Below, in pieces: positions 9,501 through 18,492 of a DNA stretch of 35,526 nt. Below the pieces are notes generated by a model. It was not told the origin of the DNA and did not search any database. It saw only the letters and a list, made by a program, of their open reading frames with translations. The stretch lies in assembly GCA_048939245.1 (NCBI GenBank), contig JBHLPR010000022.1:1-35526 (forward strand), given 5' to 3'. The translations under genes were made by a program, and so were the position numbers. The first letter of the stretch is position 1. The number at the start of each line of letters is the position of its first letter. The DNA comes from Promethearchaeota archaeon. GTDB lineage: Archaea > Asgardarchaeota > Hermodarchaeia > Hermodarchaeales > Hermodarchaeaceae.

Positions 9501-10328
9501 ACTTAACCGAGGAGGACTAGTGTGTGGTTGTTGTCTCCAACTGACCTTGAATTCACGATTCGCCCGGATATCCATCCAATTCCCAATAATCAAGGGAAGG
9601 TGCCGATTCGTGATGCCCAGCCATCCATTGGAGCCAAACCAAGTTGGATCCATAGGCACCCACTGATTCCGAATCCATACCTCACTCCATCCATGCCGCT
9701 CCCATTTCTTCTTCGAAGCTGCGAATCCAGAGATTAACCGCGCAGGAATCTTTCTAGCTCTACAGATTGCTGCAAATAGCGCTGAGTACTCCGTACAGTC
9801 ACCAACTTGTTGTTCAATTGCGTATGCTGCCCCTCGCTCATGCTCTTGAGGAACATAACGGAGAGTTTTGGTGACTGCTCGCATAGCTGCTTTGATAAAG
9901 GGAATCAGCTTCCGATGTTTTTTGGCAAGATCACGGGCAAGATCTTTTATCAAGTGGTGATGGGACTCGATGAAATATTCGGGTTCTATATATGACTGCA
10001 GCCGGTTGGGGATTAAGCGATTTTGAATATCTGGTGATGGTTGATAGTGGATGGAGCGATTTCGAATTAAAGCGATGTATCCGCAGGTGAATGTATCATT
10101 TCCTGATAAGTGTGGACACGAGATATTCAGCCAGTTATTTCCCTCTTTATCACTAGCATGCCTACTCGTATTTGGATATGGTTTAATCTCCAACAGCTGT
10201 TGATACGGTTCAAAGGGTGGAGGAAACGCAAGCAGAATTCGAATGTTCGTTAAGGGGCTCGTAGTGGTATTCACTACTTGGGTTTGGTAGGTTAGACGAT
10301 GAGTCAGAATGGCTGAACCTGAAATCAT
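9456..10328 (-). CDS. Transglutaminase-like (papain-fold) protein with an intact Cys-His-Asp triad
   Basis: GDCTEYSALF, IPARLISG, HGWSEVW, WVPMDPTW. Confidence 0.9.
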   Translation of the reverse strand: MISGSAILTHRLTYQTQVVNTTTSPLTNIRILLAFPPPFEPYQQLLEIKPYPNTSRHASDKEGNNWLNISCPHLSGNDTFTCGYIALIRNRSIHYQPSPDIQNRLIPNRLQSYIEPEYFIESHHHLIKDLARDLAKKHRKLIPFIKAAMRAVTKTLRYVPQEHERGAAYAIEQQVGDCTEYSALFAAICRARKIPARLISGFAASKKKWERHGWSEVWIRNQWVPMDPTWFGSNGWLGITNRHLPLIIGNWMDIRANREFKVSWRQQPHTSPPRLSSTWKVRQVVGFQAS

Positions 10329-10711
10329 GGTTCCTGCCCATTTGATGTTGTTGATTCCTCGCTCTGGGCCTCGTCGTCATCAAGAATAATAACTCTACCT
10401 TCAGACGTGTGTTGTGGTTTTCGGTGAACATCACCCAAAAACACCACTTTCGAACCTCGACTAGAATTAGAGATTTCGGCTTCGCGACGTGGTCCGAGGA
10501 ATCGGCTGAAATGGGGCACATGCGTTTCAGTGCCTCGTGCAATGGCTCCTGGACAAATGTCTTCGCCTGCTTCTAACAATAAGGCACGGCAACTAGCACA
10601 AATGTAGCTCCCACAAGATGTGCATATCCACCATTGGCTCCTTGCTTCTTCGAGAGTCACTTGTGAATCGCAAGCCACACATTTGATATGCGATGCCCCG
10701 TGGACACTCAT
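10325..10711 (-). CDS. RING-like zinc-finger protein with a SIM-like acidic tail (putative E3)
   Basis: CVAC-x15-CTSC-x4-CASC-x11-CP...H; tail motifs KVVFLGD and RVIILDDDE. ATGA overlaps with the genes on both sides. Confidence 0.7.
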   Translation of the reverse strand: MSVHGASHIKCVACDSQVTLEEARSQWWICTSCGSYICASCRALLLEAGEDICPGAIARGTETHVPHFSRFLGPRREAEISNSSRGSKVVFLGDVHRKPQHTSEGRVIILDDDEAQSEESTTSNGQEP

Positions 10712-10938: not shown

Positions 10939-11685
10939 CTAACGATCTTCATCATCAAGAATCCGTACAGTTGATTTTTCTTCAGGTTTATCTAGAATTT
11001 GGGGAGTTTTTCGTTGTGAAGTATCTGATGATGAATGAGGTGAAAGAATCTGGACCCGGCCCTGTCGTGGTGAGGTAGAGGCACCAGCTTGGTGTCTCGC
11101 TTCCCATAACCGGTCTAAGGTTTCGACGATATTTTTTGTGTCCTGTTCGTACCATGCCATCGCCGAACTATTGAGTCCATGATCTGATTCAAACTGGGAT
11201 GGTGGCTCTACGCGATCTGGTTTTAGCAGCACAAAGAATGGTAGATCCTCGAGAATTCGGTCAAGCTCTCCTCGAACGGAATAGCACGCATGACCTGTTC
11301 CACTGGCGGCGAGTCGAGGATGAAAAAGGGGGGTTTCAGCTGCAGGTCGGATGGTACCGATATTTTGTGGATATTCTCGTGGTAAATCAAAAACGAATCG
11401 ATGTTCATATCGGATAGCACCTTCATCCGTGAGTGAACGTGGTTGACGGACGATTCCAGGTAGATTCCGCATGGTGAATCGAATACGTTTGTATGCACCA
11501 TCACGATATCGGGCGATAATCGCAACGGTGAAATCACGATTACTCCAGGTGGTATTTTCTCGCCGTGGCGGGTCTGGATCCCATCCACGTCGCCCATAGA
11601 GATTATTGATAGTATCAAAAAATGTTTGAATCTGTGTTTCCACTCGGGCGTTGAAAAGTTCAATCGAGAATACGGGTCGTGTCAT
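10939..11685 (-). CDS. E2/UBC-fold conjugating enzyme with a disordered C-terminal tail
   Basis: FVFDLPREYP...TPLFHPRLAASGTGHAC fits the UBC pattern P-x-x-YP...FHPN...G-x-x-C, with the catalytic Cys present. ATG 11685 follows GAGGG (the ORF is open from 11700). Confidence 0.85.
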   Translation of the reverse strand: MTRPVFSIELFNARVETQIQTFFDTINNLYGRRGWDPDPPRRENTTWSNRDFTVAIIARYRDGAYKRIRFTMRNLPGIVRQPRSLTDEGAIRYEHRFVFDLPREYPQNIGTIRPAAETPLFHPRLAASGTGHACYSVRGELDRILEDLPFFVLLKPDRVEPPSQFESDHGLNSSAMAWYEQDTKNIVETLDRLWEARHQAGASTSPRQGRVQILSPHSSSDTSQRKTPQILDKPEEKSTVRILDDEDR

Positions 11686-11730
11686 GGTGTAATCCCTCAC
11701 AGATGCTTTGCCCTCCTGATTGGGCTCTAT

Positions 11731-12057
11731 TCATTGTTTCTGTCCAACTTCGGGAACGACATCAAGGAGGAAGAATTCGTCGTCAGTGATTTTCGGCTCA
11801 AGCTCACCAAAGGCCACACCGGGACTTAACCGTGTGGGCTCTGGAGCTTTGCGAATCAAGACGAACTCAGCACGTTGATCGCCGATTTTCGCTTTCGCCC
11901 AATCGTCAATACTGACACCTTCATCGCGGGCTTGTGTAACGAGGGTACGGATAACCTCCTCGACTCGAGTTTCCTCATCAATGCCAATCCGGAATTCCTT
12001 TTGGCGTGGCTCAACGTCGACAATGATTGAGCGCCAAAAACCTTCTTCGTTACTCAT
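11731..12057 (-). CDS. Ubiquitin-like (beta-grasp) protein ending EVG-QKQ
   Basis: Strand-strand-helix pattern SIIVDV / EFRIGID / ETRVEEVIRTL, then FVLIRK, LSP..AFGEL, ITDDEFFLLDV and a near-terminal Gly. First gene before the E2; AGGTGA SD. Confidence 0.72.
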   Translation of the reverse strand: MSNEEGFWRSIIVDVEPRQKEFRIGIDEETRVEEVIRTLVTQARDEGVSIDDWAKAKIGDQRAEFVLIRKAPEPTRLSPGVAFGELEPKITDDEFFLLDVVPEVGQKQ

Positions 12058-12299: not shown

Positions 12300-15194
12300 A
12301 TGACCACTAGGCAAGAGACAACCCTTTCAACCTCACCGGTCGTGTTTCGCAGTATCCGCCTAGTCAATTTTGTCATTCATCGCGACACCACTATTGAACT
12401 CGATGAGTCACCCGTCGTTCTCATCACCGGATCAAATGGAAGTGGTAAAACTCTCATTCTTGATGCGCTTCTGCTAGCTATTGGAGTTGAATCTAGGCGG
12501 GCTCAACGCCAACGAAATTCCGCCTTCATTGGACGATTTGGCAAATATGCCGAAGTCGAATTAGAACTTAATAACTTCCAGATCAACGGGTGCCGTGTCT
12601 TACGTAGCCCTGATACCGCTTTATCCAAACTTCTGGACAAAGATGTGGTTTCGATTCGCCTTCGGATTCATAATACCAACAGGGTATCCTATTGGCTGAA
12701 TGGGCAACGATCGGTAAATGGACACCAAATTGCGCGAAAGGATATCCGAAAGCTGTTTCAAGCGGCTGGGTTGTTCGGGGATTCTCCACTAGCGGTTACA
12801 GAAGCTGAAACATTAGATCATTTTGCTTCTCAATCACCTCGAAGAAAATTCGAAACGCTTCTCAACGAAACTGGATTAAGGAGTTGGATGGAAAAACTCG
12901 AAGAAGCCCGACTATTAGTTTTACAGGCAAAAGCCAATGTTAAACCTCTTGAATACCGCATTCGCCATGAACAACAACGGCAACAAGTTTTGAAAGCAGC
13001 CTATGAAGCCTTTCAGCAAAAACAGCAACTCCAACAACGACAAAAAGACCTCGATGTTGAAGCTGCTTGGGCAGAAGTCTCCTACCGCGAAGAACTCGCA
13101 ACTCAACTCCAATCACAGATTACGACATTAGACAATCAACTAACAGTTGAGAATGGCAAACTGGACAAACTCAATTCCCGTCAGGCTAGTCTACAAGATA
13201 AGTTGGATGCAAATCTGGCCAAACGGGAAAAACTCTTGGCAACAATGAACGAGCTCCGCGACCAGCAAATGCAATCTCAAGGACATCGTCAAGGATTAGA
13301 AAATGAACTTAACGCACTCAAAGCACGGACAAAACGATATACTAGACGTCAGAAACCTGCTAATACAAAAATCGACAGCATTCAGAAAGAATTAGACGAA
13401 TTCGTGAGTGAGCGAGATAAACTCGATGATCAACTGTCACAGGTTCGTCAAGATGTAGCATCAGCTGAAGAAGGACTCTTCTCGCAGCCCCAACGGTACC
13501 CACACTTTGAAGAAAAAATCCTTCGCGCCTGTCTACGTTTTCGTTCTGAACTAGATAAAATTGCCCTCTCCGATTCAGTCATTGGTCCACTTTTTACGCT
13601 TATCCGGATGAAACCTGAATATACCCAACATGAAACTGCGGTGAAACTCGCCTTAGGTCGCTACACCTACTCGTTTATCGCACTTAACCGCGAAGTTTTC
13701 GTCGAAGCCAAGAACCTTTATGATCGGCTCTGGCCTCACGAAAAACCTGACTTGGTGGTCGCCCGTACAAATCCCACCACTGCAATCACGCGAGACCGGC
13801 CGGCTGTTTCATCACCTGTAATTGGGTGGGCTGCAGATCTCATCGAAGGCGATCTGTACGCGGTGAGTTTTCTTAACCGTGTAGTAAATACTGCCATCGC
13901 AGAAGAAGGTGCTGATCCAAATACGTTAGTAGATGCCACTCAACAGCTCAATGGTAACATCATCACTAGTGAAGGTTCAAGCCATTATCTCCGAATAGGC
14001 GCATTTACTCGTCCTCCCCGTCCAGTAACTGTCAGCTTAGATATCACACTCCATGAACTGAGTCTAACACACGACGTTACTGACGGACGTCGCCAGCTTC
14101 GCGAACTTCGGGAGCAGGAAGCTCATTTCATGCGGGATCGGATGCGCATTAATGCAGAGATAAGCCAACTTCGATCTATCCTTCAAGATTTGCAGGCAGC
14201 CCATACCATTCAGCTATCTAGTGAAGAACGAACTGCTTTAATCACGGATGCAGACCGTCGCATTACAGAACTTCAACAGCAGATTCTTGAATTAGAAACT
14301 GGCTGTGATGCACTCAGCCAAGATTATCAAGACTGTAACTCGGATTTATCGCCACTCAATTCCAGACAACAAGAAATCACAGGACAACTCCACACTCTTA
14401 GCTCACGGCAATCTCGTCGTCAAGCAGAAATTGACCGTTTATCTGATGAGCTCAAACAACGAGAAGATGAATACGAACATCTCATGAAACAAACCAAGGA
14501 CTTCCGAAAAGCTGCAACCAAGCTTGCGGAACGCCCTGCGGTGGTTCGAGAACCTACTGCGATCCGTGATGAGCAAATCCAAATCCAGGCTATGATTGAT
14601 ACTATCACAGCAACGGCAGAAGATCGTCACGCTTTTGAAGAACAAGAAAAGGTGGTGTCTCAACTCCAAGAATATCTCACTCAACGACAGCTTCATCTTG
14701 AAAATCTCATGACGGACGTTGATCGTCGATTACTGGAGTGGCGGCGACAACTCGAACAAACAGTCGAAACTTTGAACCAACGAATGAATCAGCTGCTTAG
14801 CCACTTCCTCAAACAAGTCAAATTACTTATTCGCTTTCCTGACGAACCCAGTCGGGCAGAACTCCACCTCCAATTGGCTATCAATCGTAGAGGTGAATGG
14901 CGAACCTATCAGGAAATGTCGGGCGGGGAACGTGTGCTGGCTACTCAAACCTTTATTTTAGCACTGCATACCCTTGCAAAGAGTCCTCTTCACGTGATTG
15001 ATGAATTCACTCAACGTCTAGATGAAGCAAGCCGCGCAGCAATTCTTAGTGTCGTTCAGCGAGCCCTTGATTTGACCCAGCAAGAATCACTAATCAATCC
15101 CCAATTTCTATTAATGGCTCCATCCACAGTAGGGCTTCAGATTCCAGAGACAATGCACCACGTGGTCCTCCTTAAAGGGCAGGTGAAGAAATGA
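12300..15194 (+). CDS. SMC-family ATPase of Smc5/6 type
   Basis: IRLVNFVIH, Walker A GSNGSGKT, two coiled coils around a hinge (VIGPLFTLI...AVKLALGRYTYSFI), signature MSGGER, SPLHVIDEFTQRLD, QFLLMAP. Confidence 0.88.
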   Translation: MTTRQETTLSTSPVVFRSIRLVNFVIHRDTTIELDESPVVLITGSNGSGKTLILDALLLAIGVESRRAQRQRNSAFIGRFGKYAEVELELNNFQINGCRVLRSPDTALSKLLDKDVVSIRLRIHNTNRVSYWLNGQRSVNGHQIARKDIRKLFQAAGLFGDSPLAVTEAETLDHFASQSPRRKFETLLNETGLRSWMEKLEEARLLVLQAKANVKPLEYRIRHEQQRQQVLKAAYEAFQQKQQLQQRQKDLDVEAAWAEVSYREELATQLQSQITTLDNQLTVENGKLDKLNSRQASLQDKLDANLAKREKLLATMNELRDQQMQSQGHRQGLENELNALKARTKRYTRRQKPANTKIDSIQKELDEFVSERDKLDDQLSQVRQDVASAEEGLFSQPQRYPHFEEKILRACLRFRSELDKIALSDSVIGPLFTLIRMKPEYTQHETAVKLALGRYTYSFIALNREVFVEAKNLYDRLWPHEKPDLVVARTNPTTAITRDRPAVSSPVIGWAADLIEGDLYAVSFLNRVVNTAIAEEGADPNTLVDATQQLNGNIITSEGSSHYLRIGAFTRPPRPVTVSLDITLHELSLTHDVTDGRRQLRELREQEAHFMRDRMRINAEISQLRSILQDLQAAHTIQLSSEERTALITDADRRITELQQQILELETGCDALSQDYQDCNSDLSPLNSRQQEITGQLHTLSSRQSRRQAEIDRLSDELKQREDEYEHLMKQTKDFRKAATKLAERPAVVREPTAIRDEQIQIQAMIDTITATAEDRHAFEEQEKVVSQLQEYLTQRQLHLENLMTDVDRRLLEWRRQLEQTVETLNQRMNQLLSHFLKQVKLLIRFPDEPSRAELHLQLAINRRGEWRTYQEMSGGERVLATQTFILALHTLAKSPLHVIDEFTQRLDEASRAAILSVVQRALDLTQQESLINPQFLLMAPSTVGLQIPETMHHVVLLKGQVKK

Positions 15195-15988
15195 TGATTT
15201 CCAATGATACTTCTACTTTCCTCCGTGCCTTTCCGCGACGTAAAGCCTGGTACGACACATTCCAGCATAACTACAAACGGAATCAGCTAACCAAACATGG
15301 CACAAAAACCGTGGTCATCACCCTCTGGAATCTCACGAAAAAATACGAAGTAGCTCTCAAACAACATGAGGTATTTCCCGTTAAAGAAGCGGAAATAGAC
15401 CGCGAGGAAGTCACTGATGCATATCGCGTACTCGAAACACCTTGGGAACGAAACCTCGATGGTCGCTTCTATTACACACTTGCTTCAATGCAACACCATC
15501 GCGATTCTCAATTGGCTACTCCTGAAATTGCCCCTGAAGAATGGATTTCCCAATTTGCCAATGAGGTTAAACGTCGGGCTACTCCTCTTCTGTTTCTAAT
15601 CAATCCTGATCATACTATTCCACCGCTCGATTTACCTCCTACAGATTCTCCTGTAGCAATGGCTGAACCACCTTCCCCCGACGATCAGCAGGCAATGCGC
15701 CGACATCGAATACCTTTCAAAGACATTTCGTTCGATGATCTTGATGCCCGGCGAGCCTCAATCGTGAAGCGCCTCCAAGGAAAACGGTACAACTACATAG
15801 CATTATCAGAACTCTTAACAAACTGGGAATTGGATCTATTAAGCCAACTGATTCGAGATGATATACTCCCGGCTACCTTCGAAAAAACTGTAGTTCACTT
15901 CCGGAAATCATCACCATCTCGAAAAGCGGATTCAATATATGCAGCTGTTGCTATTGCTGCAAAAAACCATGAGGAGGTTACACATTGA
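15191..15988 (+). CDS. Hypothetical protein, putative kleisin (Nse4/ScpA-like)
   Basis: Overlaps both the smc stop and the KITE start. Helical N-terminus, Pro-rich linker (PPLDLPPTDSP..EPPSP) and a C-terminal region compatible with a winged helix. The kleisin call is positional only. Confidence 0.45.
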   Translation: MMISNDTSTFLRAFPRRKAWYDTFQHNYKRNQLTKHGTKTVVITLWNLTKKYEVALKQHEVFPVKEAEIDREEVTDAYRVLETPWERNLDGRFYYTLASMQHHRDSQLATPEIAPEEWISQFANEVKRRATPLLFLINPDHTIPPLDLPPTDSPVAMAEPPSPDDQQAMRRHRIPFKDISFDDLDARRASIVKRLQGKRYNYIALSELLTNWELDLLSQLIRDDILPATFEKTVVHFRKSSPSRKADSIYAAVAIAAKNHEEVTH

Positions 15989-16632
15989 CGACATCCAATC
16001 CCCCCTCTTCTGAATCCGCCAAACCCACCGATACGCCAAAAGACGATGAATTCGAGCAACGCCATCTCCTCGGTCAATTATTCGCCGCACTCACCGCACG
16101 ATTTCGTAATGAAGAAGGGCAACTCAGCATCGGAGTCAAACGGCAAAATCTTCTAGAAGCTCTGCATATCAACAAATCAGGGCTGACTCGTCTACTGGAT
16201 TTACTCCGGCAACAGATTTCCCCCCTTGGATTGGAATTAGTTGAATATCGATTGGGACGTGATACCCTCTATTGTATCCGAACTATCTATGGCGTTCCAG
16301 GAGAACTCTCAGATCCCGAATATGCTGTACTCGGAGTTATCATCTCCACGGTGGAACGTGCTAGTAAACATCGCCGACCGCGACACGTCTCGACGAAAGA
16401 TATCGAAACTATTCTCGTTGCCCGTGGGCGCCTTTCCCGTTATCAATTGGATAAAATCCTAAGGCGTCTGACGGAATTGGGATATATTAACCGATCTACT
16501 CGACGAGTGGCTTATGGTCCACGACTCGAACTTGAATTTGATTCGGAACGTCGCGAAGCCATCGCCAACGCTGCCACCCTCTATCTCGCTGGTGCCGTTT
16601 CTCAAAGGGAGGACACAAAGAATGAAACTTGA
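15985..16632 (+). CDS. KITE tandem winged-helix protein (Nse1/Nse3-MAGE/ScpB-like)
   Basis: LLDLLRQQISPLGLELVE (wH-A), LSDPEYAVLGVII, LDKILRRLTELGYI...YGPRLELE (cf. MAGE/Nse3 WGPRAxxE). Confidence 0.75.
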   Translation: MTTSNPPSSESAKPTDTPKDDEFEQRHLLGQLFAALTARFRNEEGQLSIGVKRQNLLEALHINKSGLTRLLDLLRQQISPLGLELVEYRLGRDTLYCIRTIYGVPGELSDPEYAVLGVIISTVERASKHRRPRHVSTKDIETILVARGRLSRYQLDKILRRLTELGYINRSTRRVAYGPRLELEFDSERREAIANAATLYLAGAVSQREDTKNET

Positions 16633-17083
16633 TCTTTCTACAGTCGGGATTAGTTGTGTGGCGTGTGGTACACGAACAACACTCGAAGAGGCAATTCAAA
16701 ATGGGTGGCATCAATGTCTCCGTTGTCAATTTTTCATTGATCCCCATTGTCTTCAAATCGTCCAAAACACCATGGGTGGTACATGTCCGTCATTTAGTCA
16801 AGGCGTTTCTCGCCATACTCTACAGCTATCTGACATTCCTTCAGAACAAATCCTCATCTTTGTAAAAGATCAATATCAGAAAGGTCGGGTCGGGGTCTTA
16901 ATTGACACTCTGTTTTATTCTAAGGATCTAAGGTTAGAAAAACCTCACCATTCGAGTCGGCTCCACCCCGAACCTGAAGAAGCCCTTACACGAGAAGAAA
17001 TTTGGCAACGCTACGGTCTTGTTTTAGTTCAGCGAACTCAGGGCAAATGGAAAACTTGGGAAAAAATTGGTACTACAGGCTAA
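16622..17083 (+). CDS. RING-like zinc-finger protein (Nse1 RING-like), paralog of 10325-10711
   Basis: CVAC...GWHQCLRC...IDPHC...CPS...H. ATG 16622 follows a GGAGG SD and overlaps the KITE stop. Confidence 0.7.
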   Translation: MKLDLSTVGISCVACGTRTTLEEAIQNGWHQCLRCQFFIDPHCLQIVQNTMGGTCPSFSQGVSRHTLQLSDIPSEQILIFVKDQYQKGRVGVLIDTLFYSKDLRLEKPHHSSRLHPEPEEALTREEIWQRYGLVLVQRTQGKWKTWEKIGTTG

Positions 17084-17504
17084 AATCCCTACAAAGCGTA
17101 AACTATTTACCACTCACTCCATTACAACTTTTCAACGAATTTACATTGCGTGCTATATGGAGTTATTGGGTGTGGTTGACGCAAAATCTCCTAGTTGGGT
17201 AAAGCAAGTTGTTCGACGATGGAAACAATTCTATCAAGAAATCCAATATGCTGATGGGCAACTGGATATGTCAAATCCCCTGAGCCTTATCTTCCAAAGA
17301 GAAATTCTTCCACAAGAAGCAGCAGCGCAAACCGCTAAAGGCGTTTCCCCATCACCTGAACCGCTTCCTTCGAAGAAAAAAGAGTCGGTAAAATCTCAAC
17401 CACAGAAAGCTCCGTCAAAAACAAAACATAAACAGAATAAAGGGCGGTTTTTCTCCAAACTAAAGGAAATCCAATGTCTCCTCAACCCTTACCCCTTTTT
17501 CTGA
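17067..17504 (+). CDS. Hypothetical protein, last gene of the SMC operon
   Basis: Overlaps the previous stop; helical N-terminal half and a Lys/Pro/Ser-rich basic tail. Confidence 0.6.
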   Translation: MVLQAKIPTKRKLFTTHSITTFQRIYIACYMELLGVVDAKSPSWVKQVVRRWKQFYQEIQYADGQLDMSNPLSLIFQREILPQEAAAQTAKGVSPSPEPLPSKKKESVKSQPQKAPSKTKHKQNKGRFFSKLKEIQCLLNPYPFF

Positions 17505-17505
17505 G

Positions 17506-18492
17506 CTAGTCTGATTCCTTCGCTCCTACTCCAAGTTCGGTGAGGATCTTGTCAACGATCTCCTTAGCTTGTTTTTTCGTGGCTGCTGATTCCGTAGTTG
17601 GTTCATCGCGAACATCGGCAGGAAGCTGGGGGAGTCCAGCAAGTGTTCGGACAATTCCGGAGATGGCGTGTTTAGCGACTGACACTTCGGATCCTCCGGA
17701 TAGTAATACGACTAATCGACCTGAACAGACTTCTTCTGCGGCCTGCATAAGAATCTCCGTCATAGCTGGAAAGGCCGCTAATGACAGATTAAATCCACCA
17801 TAATCCAATGCGTGTGCATCGTGTCCCATATTCCATAGAATCATCTCGGGGCGAATCTGACGGGCCAAGGGGTGCACCAATCGGCGAACTGCTGTGACAA
17901 AGGAGTCATCACTACTGCTGCTGGGAAAGGGAACGTCTATATGGCGGTGTGTGACCAAATCGAAGCTCTCTCGAAAACTCGCTTCAAAATTCAGATGGTA
18001 TACTCCTTCATCGTCACCAAGCGTATCACGAGTTCCATCTCCTGGATGGGGATCTGTATCAACAATGAAGAACCGTTTCGCTCCATGTGTTTGCTGCAAA
18101 TGGCGCACTAATAACGCTGTGTTATTGTAATAGCAGAATCCCCAAAAGGAATCACGGCTTGCATGGTGCCCAGCACAACCAGTAAAAGCAAACGCATTCG
18201 CAGCGTCACCTACCCACACAGCTTCACCAGCACGAATAGCTGAACCACTGGATACCAATGAAGCAGGATCATACCCTGAATCTTTTACCCTTCTGATGTG
18301 ATCCGAAGTATGGACCTTTAGAAGCAACTTTTCACTTACTTTCGGGGCTTCTTCTACTTTGGTCTGGGTAGCATCGAGAGTTCCAGTTTCTCGAAGATAA
18401 TCAAAGGCTGGTTGTACTCGGCCCGCCAATACTGGGTAGCCTTCAACCGCCATTAGAGGGTGGTAAAGAATAAGGGTTGGTTTCTTTCTCAT
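17506..18492 (-). CDS. Zn-dependent histone deacetylase family protein
   Basis: GHHA, GFCYYNN, DTDPHPGDGT, GHDAH..D, and LSGGS (normally EGGY). Confidence 0.92.
   Translation of the reverse strand: MRKKPTLILYHPLMAVEGYPVLAGRVQPAFDYLRETGTLDATQTKVEEAPKVSEKLLLKVHTSDHIRRVKDSGYDPASLVSSGSAIRAGEAVWVGDAANAFAFTGCAGHHASRDSFWGFCYYNNTALLVRHLQQTHGAKRFFIVDTDPHPGDGTRDTLGDDEGVYHLNFEASFRESFDLVTHRHIDVPFPSSSSDDSFVTAVRRLVHPLARQIRPEMILWNMGHDAHALDYGGFNLSLAAFPAMTEILMQAAEEVCSGRLVVLLSGGSEVSVAKHAISGIVRTLAGLPQLPADVRDEPTTESAATKKQAKEIVDKILTELGVGAKESD

Follow-up and report, generated by a model that had tools for sequence, protein, structure and literature searches.

A putative Smc5/6-related SMC complex encoded by an Asgard archaeal operon

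Smc5/6 is the least understood of the eukaryotic SMC complexes and its origin is debated. Here we describe an SMC-family ATPase, P0001, encoded with three partner genes in a stretch of 35,526 nucleotides from a Promethearchaeota archaeon (GCA_048939245.1, contig JBHLPR010000022.1, positions 1 to 35,526), referred to below as the window. Archaeal relatives of Smc5/6 have been recognised before: the study of Yoshinaga & Inagaki (2021; PMC8665677) defines an 'SMC5/6-related aSMC' group found mostly in TACK archaea and also in Asgard archaea. A preprint by van Hooff et al. (bioRxiv 10.1101/2024.01.07.573240) describes archaeal operons in which an SMC5/6-related SMC is encoded with a kleisin and a kite, proposes that these SMCs form homodimers, reports extra paralogues in Asgard genomes, finds that homologues from Asgard archaea rank with the relatives nearest to Smc5/6 and states that archaeal kites lack a RING domain. 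The P0001 locus resembles these published complexes closely, in that a second SMC paralogue, branching with Smc5/6 and not with canonical SMC, heads a separate operon with a kite and a kleisin candidate, is proposed to be a homodimer and occurs beside a canonical SMC. P0001 probably supplies the SMC subunit of an additional, non-canonical Asgard SMC complex belonging to this published class. The suggestion of a homodimeric pre-duplication relative of Smc5/6, made in an initial annotation of the window, is therefore already in print, and P0001 adds some undescribed details to it: a Q-loop with Glu or Ala, a zinc-finger protein as fourth gene, and lineages in which this is the only SMC found. 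None of these was found in the available parts of the two papers, and the available text of van Hooff et al. contains no mention of the term 'Q-loop'. A full-text literature search returned no further paper linking Asgard archaea, Smc5 and Nse1.

The SMC gene and its affinities

P0001 is encoded on the + strand by a single open reading frame (ORF) of 964 amino acids (12300..15194), and is assigned to a Smc5/6-related Asgard family of SMC ATPases by its translation, its match to Pfam SMC_N (2.6e-22; 79.8 bits against a cut-off of 40), its orthologues and the tree described below. The Walker A motif (P-loop) GSNGSGKT lies at 12429..12452 (+; residues 44–51; G44 and N46–T51 invariant in 35 sequences) and the Q-loop region PLAVTEAETLDHF at 12786..12824 (+; residues 163–175). 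The ABC signature motif MSGGER (14916..14933, +; residues 873–878) is followed by the Walker B and D-loop segment SPLHVIDEFTQRLD (14982..15023, +; residues 895–908), whose core reads HVIDEFTQRLD and includes the catalytic E902, and by the switch (H-loop) region QFLLMAP (15102..15122, +; residues 935–941). Every motif string listed in the initial annotation was recovered in the translation and is kept in relatives; further strings are NFVIH at residues 23–27, AVTEAETLDHF at 165–175 and VIGPLF at 427–432. Across 35 relatives, down to 28% identity, the residues H27, T167, E168, G429, P430, S874–E877, D901, E902, T904–D908, Q935, F936 and P941 are invariant, which shows that these features are real and under selection. 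The two arms are antiparallel, with ~200 residues each, and at their apex sits a globular hinge (~190 residues, one Cys). P0001 is a true SMC: its Walker A, signature, Walker B and D-loop motifs are intact and its SMC-type hinge is confidently modelled. It falls far below the NCBIfam cut-offs for TIGR02168 (114.6 bits versus 567.35) and TIGR02169 (100.6 versus 729.4), the NCBIfam SMC, Rad50 and ASRP models all being well under their cut-offs, and the Pfam scan gave no match to SMC_hinge.

The placement of the family was assessed with a tree of SMC heads, in which the N- and C-terminal halves of the head were cut by motif anchors and aligned with L-INS-i (385 columns, 70 rows). The tree was computed in IQ-TREE under LG+C20+F+G4 with posterior mean site frequencies (PMSF) and rooted on the Rad50 of the source genome; support is given as ultrafast bootstrap/SH-like approximate likelihood ratio test (UFBoot/SH-aLRT). 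It covers heads only, includes several rows with deviant composition and contains no Smc5 (none was among the 271 proteins retrieved) and one eukaryotic sequence of Smc1–4 type. MukB was tried as an extra outgroup and joined another long branch, P0253, so that both were dropped. Canonical SMCs form one clade (90/91), among them three from Asgard archaea and one Smc2-like protein from Entamoeba, and all non-canonical SMCs, including Smc6 and the P0001 family, form a second (99/93). The initial annotation had named a phylogeny of head and hinge domains as the check on its proposal; in this tree of heads P0001 falls inside the clade that holds Smc6 and outside canonical SMC. Within the non-canonical clade an archaeal type of 1126 aa is basal, and a subclade supported at 100/95 divides into three parts: two stray proteins, a group of short TACK proteins together with 14 Smc6 sequences (95/94), and an all-archaeal clade (100/96) that comprises an 'SSGQ' group, an Odinarchaeota-labelled protein, a group C and the P0001 family (21 rows, 94/90). 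A quick tree of 96 rows gave the same picture.

When searched against the PDB as a single sequence, P0001 best matches the heads of Pyrococcus Smc. The family profile places human Smc6 first (1.6e-24, 88.8 bits), with Pyrococcus Smc (68 bits), yeast Smc6 (63), Smc4 (54) and Smc5 (45) following, and the C-terminal head on its own best matches human Smc5 (8.1e-9), ahead of Pyrococcus Smc (3.9e-6) and Smc6 (5.9e-6). In the reverse direction, a hidden Markov model (HMM) of 17 Smc6 sequences run against the ORFs of the source genome found P0001 as its best match at 200.8 bits, with the pieces of the canonical SMC at 113.9 and 51.4. Judged by these profiles and the tree, the P0001 family is Smc5/6-related in the broad published sense and lies on the non-canonical side of the SMC tree.

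A comparison of motifs from aligned heads, in which the Smc5 motifs were taken only from a printed PDB alignment of the human protein, identifies what is common to P0001 and the eukaryotic pair. The N-terminal strand, GFKSF in canonical SMC and NFMCH in Smc6, reads NF(V/M).H in the P0001 family. The Walker B and D-loop motif is DE(I/V)DAALD in canonical SMC, DEFDV(F/Y)MD in Smc6 (LDEFDVFMD in the alignment) and DEINQGMD in Smc5 (VVDEINQGMD in the human protein), and DEFTQRLD in the P0001 family, which therefore has the DEF of Smc6 and the D-loop Gln of Smc5. The switch position holds His in canonical SMC, TP in Smc6 ((I/L)TPQ) and Smc5 (FFITPKLL), and (A/C/T)P in the P0001 family; the SGGER signature is a further likeness of P0001 to the eukaryotic proteins. 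The mixed Smc6/Smc5 D-loop reported in the initial annotation is literally true by alignment, though it amounts to two residues, and the likeness of NFVIH and IGPL to Smc5/6 also holds up, since both the NF.xH strand and the IGP start of the hinge (PIGP(I/L)G) are common to Smc6. The switch Pro, P941 where canonical SMC has His, is present and invariant as had been claimed, but it is not specific to Smc5/6, because the head alignment also places it in the short and the 1126-aa archaeal types and in E. coli MukB. P0001 is also ~100–200 residues shorter than Smc6 and lacks its N-terminal extension, the Walker A motif beginning at residue 44 as against 62–207.

At the Q-loop the family departs from Smc6, which keeps its Gln. 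The Gln of Smc6 and of canonical SMC aligns to Ala169 of P0001, gap-free between the flanking Pro and Phe, and among 82 family members this column holds Glu in 38, Ala in 36, Gln in 5, Gly in 2 and Ser in 1, so that the Gln is replaced in 77/82. The residues just before it are better kept (T167 in 80/82 and E168 in 68/82), and the segment reads TEAE in close relatives and TEEG in distant ones. The missing Gln suspected in the initial annotation is confirmed by this alignment, and the family has largely swapped it for an acidic patch.

The hinge and the operon partners

The hinge (dimerisation) domain lies at 13503..14069 (+; approximately residues 402–590) and starts at VIGPLF. An AlphaFold2 model of residues 385–615 has a predicted local distance difference test score (pLDDT) of 90.3. 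Foldseek ranks cohesin, Geobacillus and Pyrococcus hinges at the top (5e-9 to 3e-7), with Smc5/6 hinges appearing from rank 28, and a search independent of Foldseek (VIA) gave Z scores of 13.8 for Smc3, 13.2 for Smc4, 12.2 for Smc1, 12.1 for S. pombe Smc5/6 and 11.3 for P. furiosus. The range across SMC hinges was 9.5–13.8, against 4.6 for MukB and 5.5 for JetC. The fold of the hinge had been put forward in the initial annotation as a test of kinship with Smc5/6: it is not unlike that of Smc5/6, yet cohesin and condensin hinges match it equally or slightly better (Z 12.2–13.8). As modelled, this is a generic SMC hinge, which neither refutes nor favours the Smc5/6 reading. At the level of sequence, the family hinge HMM detects Smc6 hinges (9e-11, 2e-9 and 3e-8) together with other non-canonical archaeal hinges, and none of the 14 canonical-type SMCs included was matched significantly (best value 0.0022). 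The tree and the IGP motif common to the family and Smc6 are in accord with this result.

A homodimer of the hinge was predicted with an interaction score (ipSAE) of 0.70, where the best of three controls scored 0.00. Among 30 proteins with structures solved as same-chain pairs, 20 attain this mark, as does 1 among 23 with single-chain structures. At least 82% of contacts are in common between runs and the pLDDT of the partner is at least 82. The predicted pairing is symmetric and occurs via strands at residues 482–490 and 566–572. Because SMC hinge dimers are among the solved structures, the score may reflect a likeness to, or a memory of, those dimers. The homodimer proposed in the initial annotation is consistent with this prediction and with the genome, which has one such gene and no paralogous partner for it, whereas eukaryotic Smc5/6 is a heterodimeric pair.

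The SMC gene is the first of an operon of four genes, followed in order by P0002, P0003 and a zinc-finger protein, all on the + strand. P0002, the kleisin candidate (15191..15988; 265 aa), starts within an ATGA overlap with the SMC stop, and P0003, a KITE subunit with tandem winged-helix domains according to its AlphaFold2 model and fold matches (215 aa), occupies 15985..16632. By this arrangement the SMC gene is translationally coupled to the kleisin candidate and the KITE. The order is conserved: a P0002-like gene comes directly after the SMC gene in 16/16 distant loci examined, a P0003-like gene comes next in every examined locus with enough sequence, and the arrangement is kept down to 27% SMC identity.

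In P0002 a variable, Pro-rich linker joins conserved blocks at the N and C termini, and it is from its position and this layout only that we call it a kleisin. A Pfam scan of 19 orthologues produced scattered chance matches only, a profile search of the PDB gave nothing below E 0.13, a protein atlas had no usable match, and NCBIfam and PADLOC had none. For P0003 the AlphaFold2 model (pLDDT 82.6) matches two-domain KITE proteins, namely Nse1 (Z 11.1 over 161 residues at 3.8 Å), P. yayanosii ScpB (9.7) and JetB (9.0), as well as a chain of a yeast Smc5/6 subunit (7qcd_D, Z 9.4). Foldseek places ScpB first and Nse1 next, with a resemblance to MukE in addition. The model thus identifies P0003 as a KITE, the type of partner that eukaryotic Smc5/6 also has; the fold search settled this, and not the subtype. 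A profile search of the PDB was not significant for P0003, a few of its orthologues gave weak Pfam leads (SMC_Nse1 0.0022, MksE 0.003, ScpB 0.054), and MAGE and DUF4194 appeared in the atlas as leads only (<0.9).

The fourth gene encodes a Cys-rich, RING-like zinc-finger protein (16622..17083, +) with no Pfam family; its ORF opens at 16514 and the start at 16622 was inferred from orthologue lengths of 147–172 aa. In 15 distant loci its orthologue is the next gene after that for the KITE (phmmer, E 1.9e-36 to 3.2e-11; for example L021:9132-9605, L023:9518-10006 and L031:3286-3729). Given the published statement that archaeal kites are RING-less, a separate and conserved RING-like partner would be of interest for the origin of Nse1. 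Counterparts of Nse2, Nse5 and Nse6 were not seen, no search having been aimed at them. The zinc-finger protein is also distantly similar to a RING-like protein encoded elsewhere in the window (10325-10711, -).

By analogy with established SMC biology, these components could assemble into a homodimer with one kleisin and a KITE dimer that works by head engagement. Two copies of P0001 would dimerise via the hinge, the kleisin would link the two heads, bound to one at its neck and to the other at its cap, and the KITE dimer would sit on the kleisin. ATP binding would then engage the heads, with the signature motif and the D-loop acting in trans, and head engagement would clamp DNA, so as to hold or move it in the manner of other SMC-kleisin-KITE complexes. 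Judging from residue counts, arms of ~200 residues would span ~30 nm, shorter than those of canonical SMC. More speculatively, hydrolysis may be modified, and perhaps slowed, gated or made dependent on a partner, by the Glu/Ala Q-loop together with the switch Pro.

Distribution and alternative explanations

A word-indexed search found ~35 proteins of 950–977 aa with 52–97% identity to P0001. Where labelled, these close homologues come from Asgard metagenome-assembled genomes (Promethearchaeota, Hodarchaeota and Thorarchaeota), and the labels disagree. Beyond a gap lie proteins of 630–680 aa (Bathyarchaeia where labelled) and a few eukaryotic proteins, which are Smc6 by their motifs. Among 301 sampled Asgard genomes, 71 have an orthologue of P0001. 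In the window's own family, f1, it is present in 17/18 genomes at 54–84% identity, and full-length orthologues of ~1000 aa with 26–33% identity occur in f4 (26/29), f27 (10/11), f25, f29, f5, f10 and f24; the large families f6 (1/76) and f9 (0/68) are nearly devoid of it. An exhaustive profile search identified further archaeal relatives, namely ~1050-aa proteins with 'SSGQ...DEFDKGLD', the 1126-aa type with 'DEVDTFLD...FTPA' (one labelled Thorarchaeota) and a short type with 'DEFDVHMD...ITP', all three of which carry Pro at the position of the switch His. The short SMC-like proteins (550–680 aa, Bathyarchaeia where labelled) belong to the same non-canonical clade as P0001 and have the motifs NFMS(Y/H), SGGER, DEFD.HMD and ITP, but their arms are much shorter and most have no hinge detectable by the family hinge profile. 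P0195–P0224 and their relatives make up a large group of such proteins, of 550–680 aa, with the Smc6-like motifs QSGGERS, DEFDVHMD and ITP.

The source genome (2.52 Mb, 88% complete) also encodes a canonical SMC, whose two pieces lie at the ends of different contigs (C26:1-2981, 993 aa; C32:17818-18477, 219 aa), and a Rad50 on contig C97. No third SMC paralogue was found in it: HMMs of five other non-canonical groups returned P0001, the canonical SMC and Rad50 only. The description of P0001 as a single SMC consequently holds for the operon but not for the genome. With a canonical Asgard SMC as query, matches were obtained in 16/18 genomes of f1, 11/11 of f27, 73/76 of f6 and 61/68 of f9, but in only 2/29 of f4 and in none of f25, f24 and f10, and all four of these last families carry the P0001 family. 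Two closed f4 genomes, G026 and G074, have no match to the canonical query at E <= 1e-40, and G074 has no TIGR02169 match above the cut-off. The canonical query also found nothing in f13 (0/11) and f16 (0/5), where the P0001 family gave one weak match in f13 (1/11) and none in f16. A P0001-type protein is hence the only SMC found in several Asgard families, including two closed genomes, and its probable task in those lineages is therefore to organise the chromosome in general. In genomes that have a canonical SMC as well, its role is probably Smc5/6-like genome maintenance.

Some individual family members deserve comment. P0039 (980 aa, labelled Planctomycetes bacterium) is a full-length member that stands beside an unlabelled metagenome protein, P0123, in the quick tree, with an f24 Asgard orthologue one node further out; it is probably a mis-binned contig rather than a case of gene transfer. 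In the closed f4 genome G026, a 214-aa ORF that resembles the N-terminal SMC head only (G026:C1:1354680-1355258, L032:10070-10714, -; E 3.5e-26) lies ~2 kb from the full-length orthologue; it might represent a fragment, or else a paralogue that has been split. Two other f4 orthologues, G195:C94:78067-81030 and G150:C112:12487-15450, are each broken by one in-frame TGA, for which recoding, decay to a pseudogene or an error in sequencing might account.

Several observations weigh against assigning P0001 to the SMC5/6-related class. Neither Foldseek nor VIA separates Smc5/6 from cohesin or condensin by the hinge fold, the fold of P0003 does not separate an Nse1/3-type from an ScpB-type KITE (a Z gap of ~1.4), and the kleisin identity of P0002 is without sequence or fold support in Pfam, the PDB or the atlas. 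Profiles of defence SMC-like proteins match weakly (LmuB 5.9e-21, JetC 9.4e-14). In the tree Smc6 is sister to the short TACK proteins and not to the P0001 family, and because of the eukaryotic sampling given above the term 'Smc5/6-related' rests on Smc6 and published trees. A stronger suggestion is that the family is the direct pre-duplication sister of eukaryotic Smc5 and Smc6, with the mixed D-loop ancestral. In its favour, the Asgard ancestry of eukaryotes is established, the N-terminal head and arm are most Smc6-like and the C-terminal head most Smc5-like, the NF.xH and IGP motifs are common to Smc6, and hinges of Smc6 are detected with the hinge profile. A tree constrained to unite the Asgard clade with Smc6 is just 6.4 log-likelihood units worse and is not rejected (approximately unbiased test, p-AU 0.295), and van Hooff et al. 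also put Asgard homologues among the nearest relatives. On the other side, Smc6 groups in the best tree with short TACK proteins, most of them hinge-less (95/94), whose DEFDVHMD and ITP are nearer to Smc6 than the DEFTQRLD and MAP of P0001, Smc5 is absent from that tree, two common residues in a motif of eight are weak, and the Q-loop of the family has diverged from the Gln retained by Smc6. Of the pre-duplication relative proposed in the initial annotation, the relationship to Smc5/6 stands (99/93, profiles); the best tree does not place the family as the closest archaeal relative, and we regard direct sisterhood as possible but rather doubtful. A bolder version would make the four-gene module of homodimeric SMC, kleisin, KITE and RING-like protein the direct forerunner of the Smc5/6-Nse1/3/4 core including its ligase module, with the acidic Q-loop marking a partner-gated ATPase cycle and the complex acting as sole chromosome organiser where canonical SMC was lost; this we hold to be unlikely, somewhat more so than sisterhood.

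Eukaryotic Smc5/6 restricts extrachromosomal DNA, and the operon could be read as a module for defence against plasmids or viruses, of the Wadjet or Lamassu kind, with no part in chromosome maintenance. The partial PADLOC matches to LmuB and JetC and the likeness of the P0003 model to JetB (Z 9.0) and MukE are in line with this, but the hinge is of SMC type (Z 12–14) and not of MukB/JetC type, no JetD- or LmuA-like nuclease was seen (neither ORF of the two that follow the KITE belongs to a Pfam family), and the family, unlike patchy defence islands, is near-universal in whole Asgard families with its synteny kept, and no other SMC was found in two closed genomes, all of which makes a defence role very improbable. 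P0001 itself was excluded from the MukB/JetC type on its hinge (Z 4.6 and 5.5), on JetC profile matches that are partial only and on the lack of an observed nuclease partner, and from the Rad50/SbcC type on its apex, a globular hinge with a single Cys and no CxxC hook, and on the separate Rad50 on C97. The least probable explanation, which we disfavour, is that P0001 is a fast-evolving copy of canonical SMC-ScpAB drawn to Smc6 by long-branch attraction. Pyrococcus Smc heads do come first in the single-sequence PDB search, as does ScpB in the Foldseek search with P0003, and the hinge best matches those of cohesin, condensin and bacteria; P0001 also has the overall architecture, the SMC-type hinge fold and, as predicted, a homodimer with kleisin-candidate and KITE partners in common with SMC-ScpAB. 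However, a full canonical SMC exists separately in the source genome and its relatives, a mixture model keeps the family outside the canonical clade (99/93), the TIGR02169 score is far short of its cut-off, and P0001 differs from canonical SMC in its switch Pro in place of His, its Gln-less Q-loop, NFVIH in place of GFKSF and its shorter arms. As the SMC subunit of an SMC5/6-related complex, P0001 would offer a tractable model, being a compact homodimeric archaeal relative of Smc5/6 with three or four partner genes. Such a model could show the ancestral function, the route from a homodimer to the Smc5/Smc6 heterodimer, and the effect of the switch Pro and the Gln-less Q-loop on the ATPase.

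Neighbouring genes

Beyond the fourth gene, the ORF at 17067-17504 has no Pfam family and no match in related loci. A gene of the histone-deacetylase family (17506-18492, -; Pfam Hist_deacetyl 2.4e-45) faces the SMC operon's end in convergent orientation, and it too has no match in the related loci examined. On the other side, a ubiquitin-like protein (11731-12057, -) and its neighbour (10939-11700, -) are encoded upstream of the SMC gene and divergently from it. Homologues of these two lie ~2 kb downstream of the SMC operon in f27 (L024:11677-12866 and L025:11686-12857), so that the link between the SMC operon and a ubiquitin-like module recurs in a second Asgard family. A ubiquitin-like conjugation operon adjoins the SMC module both in f1 and in one other family.

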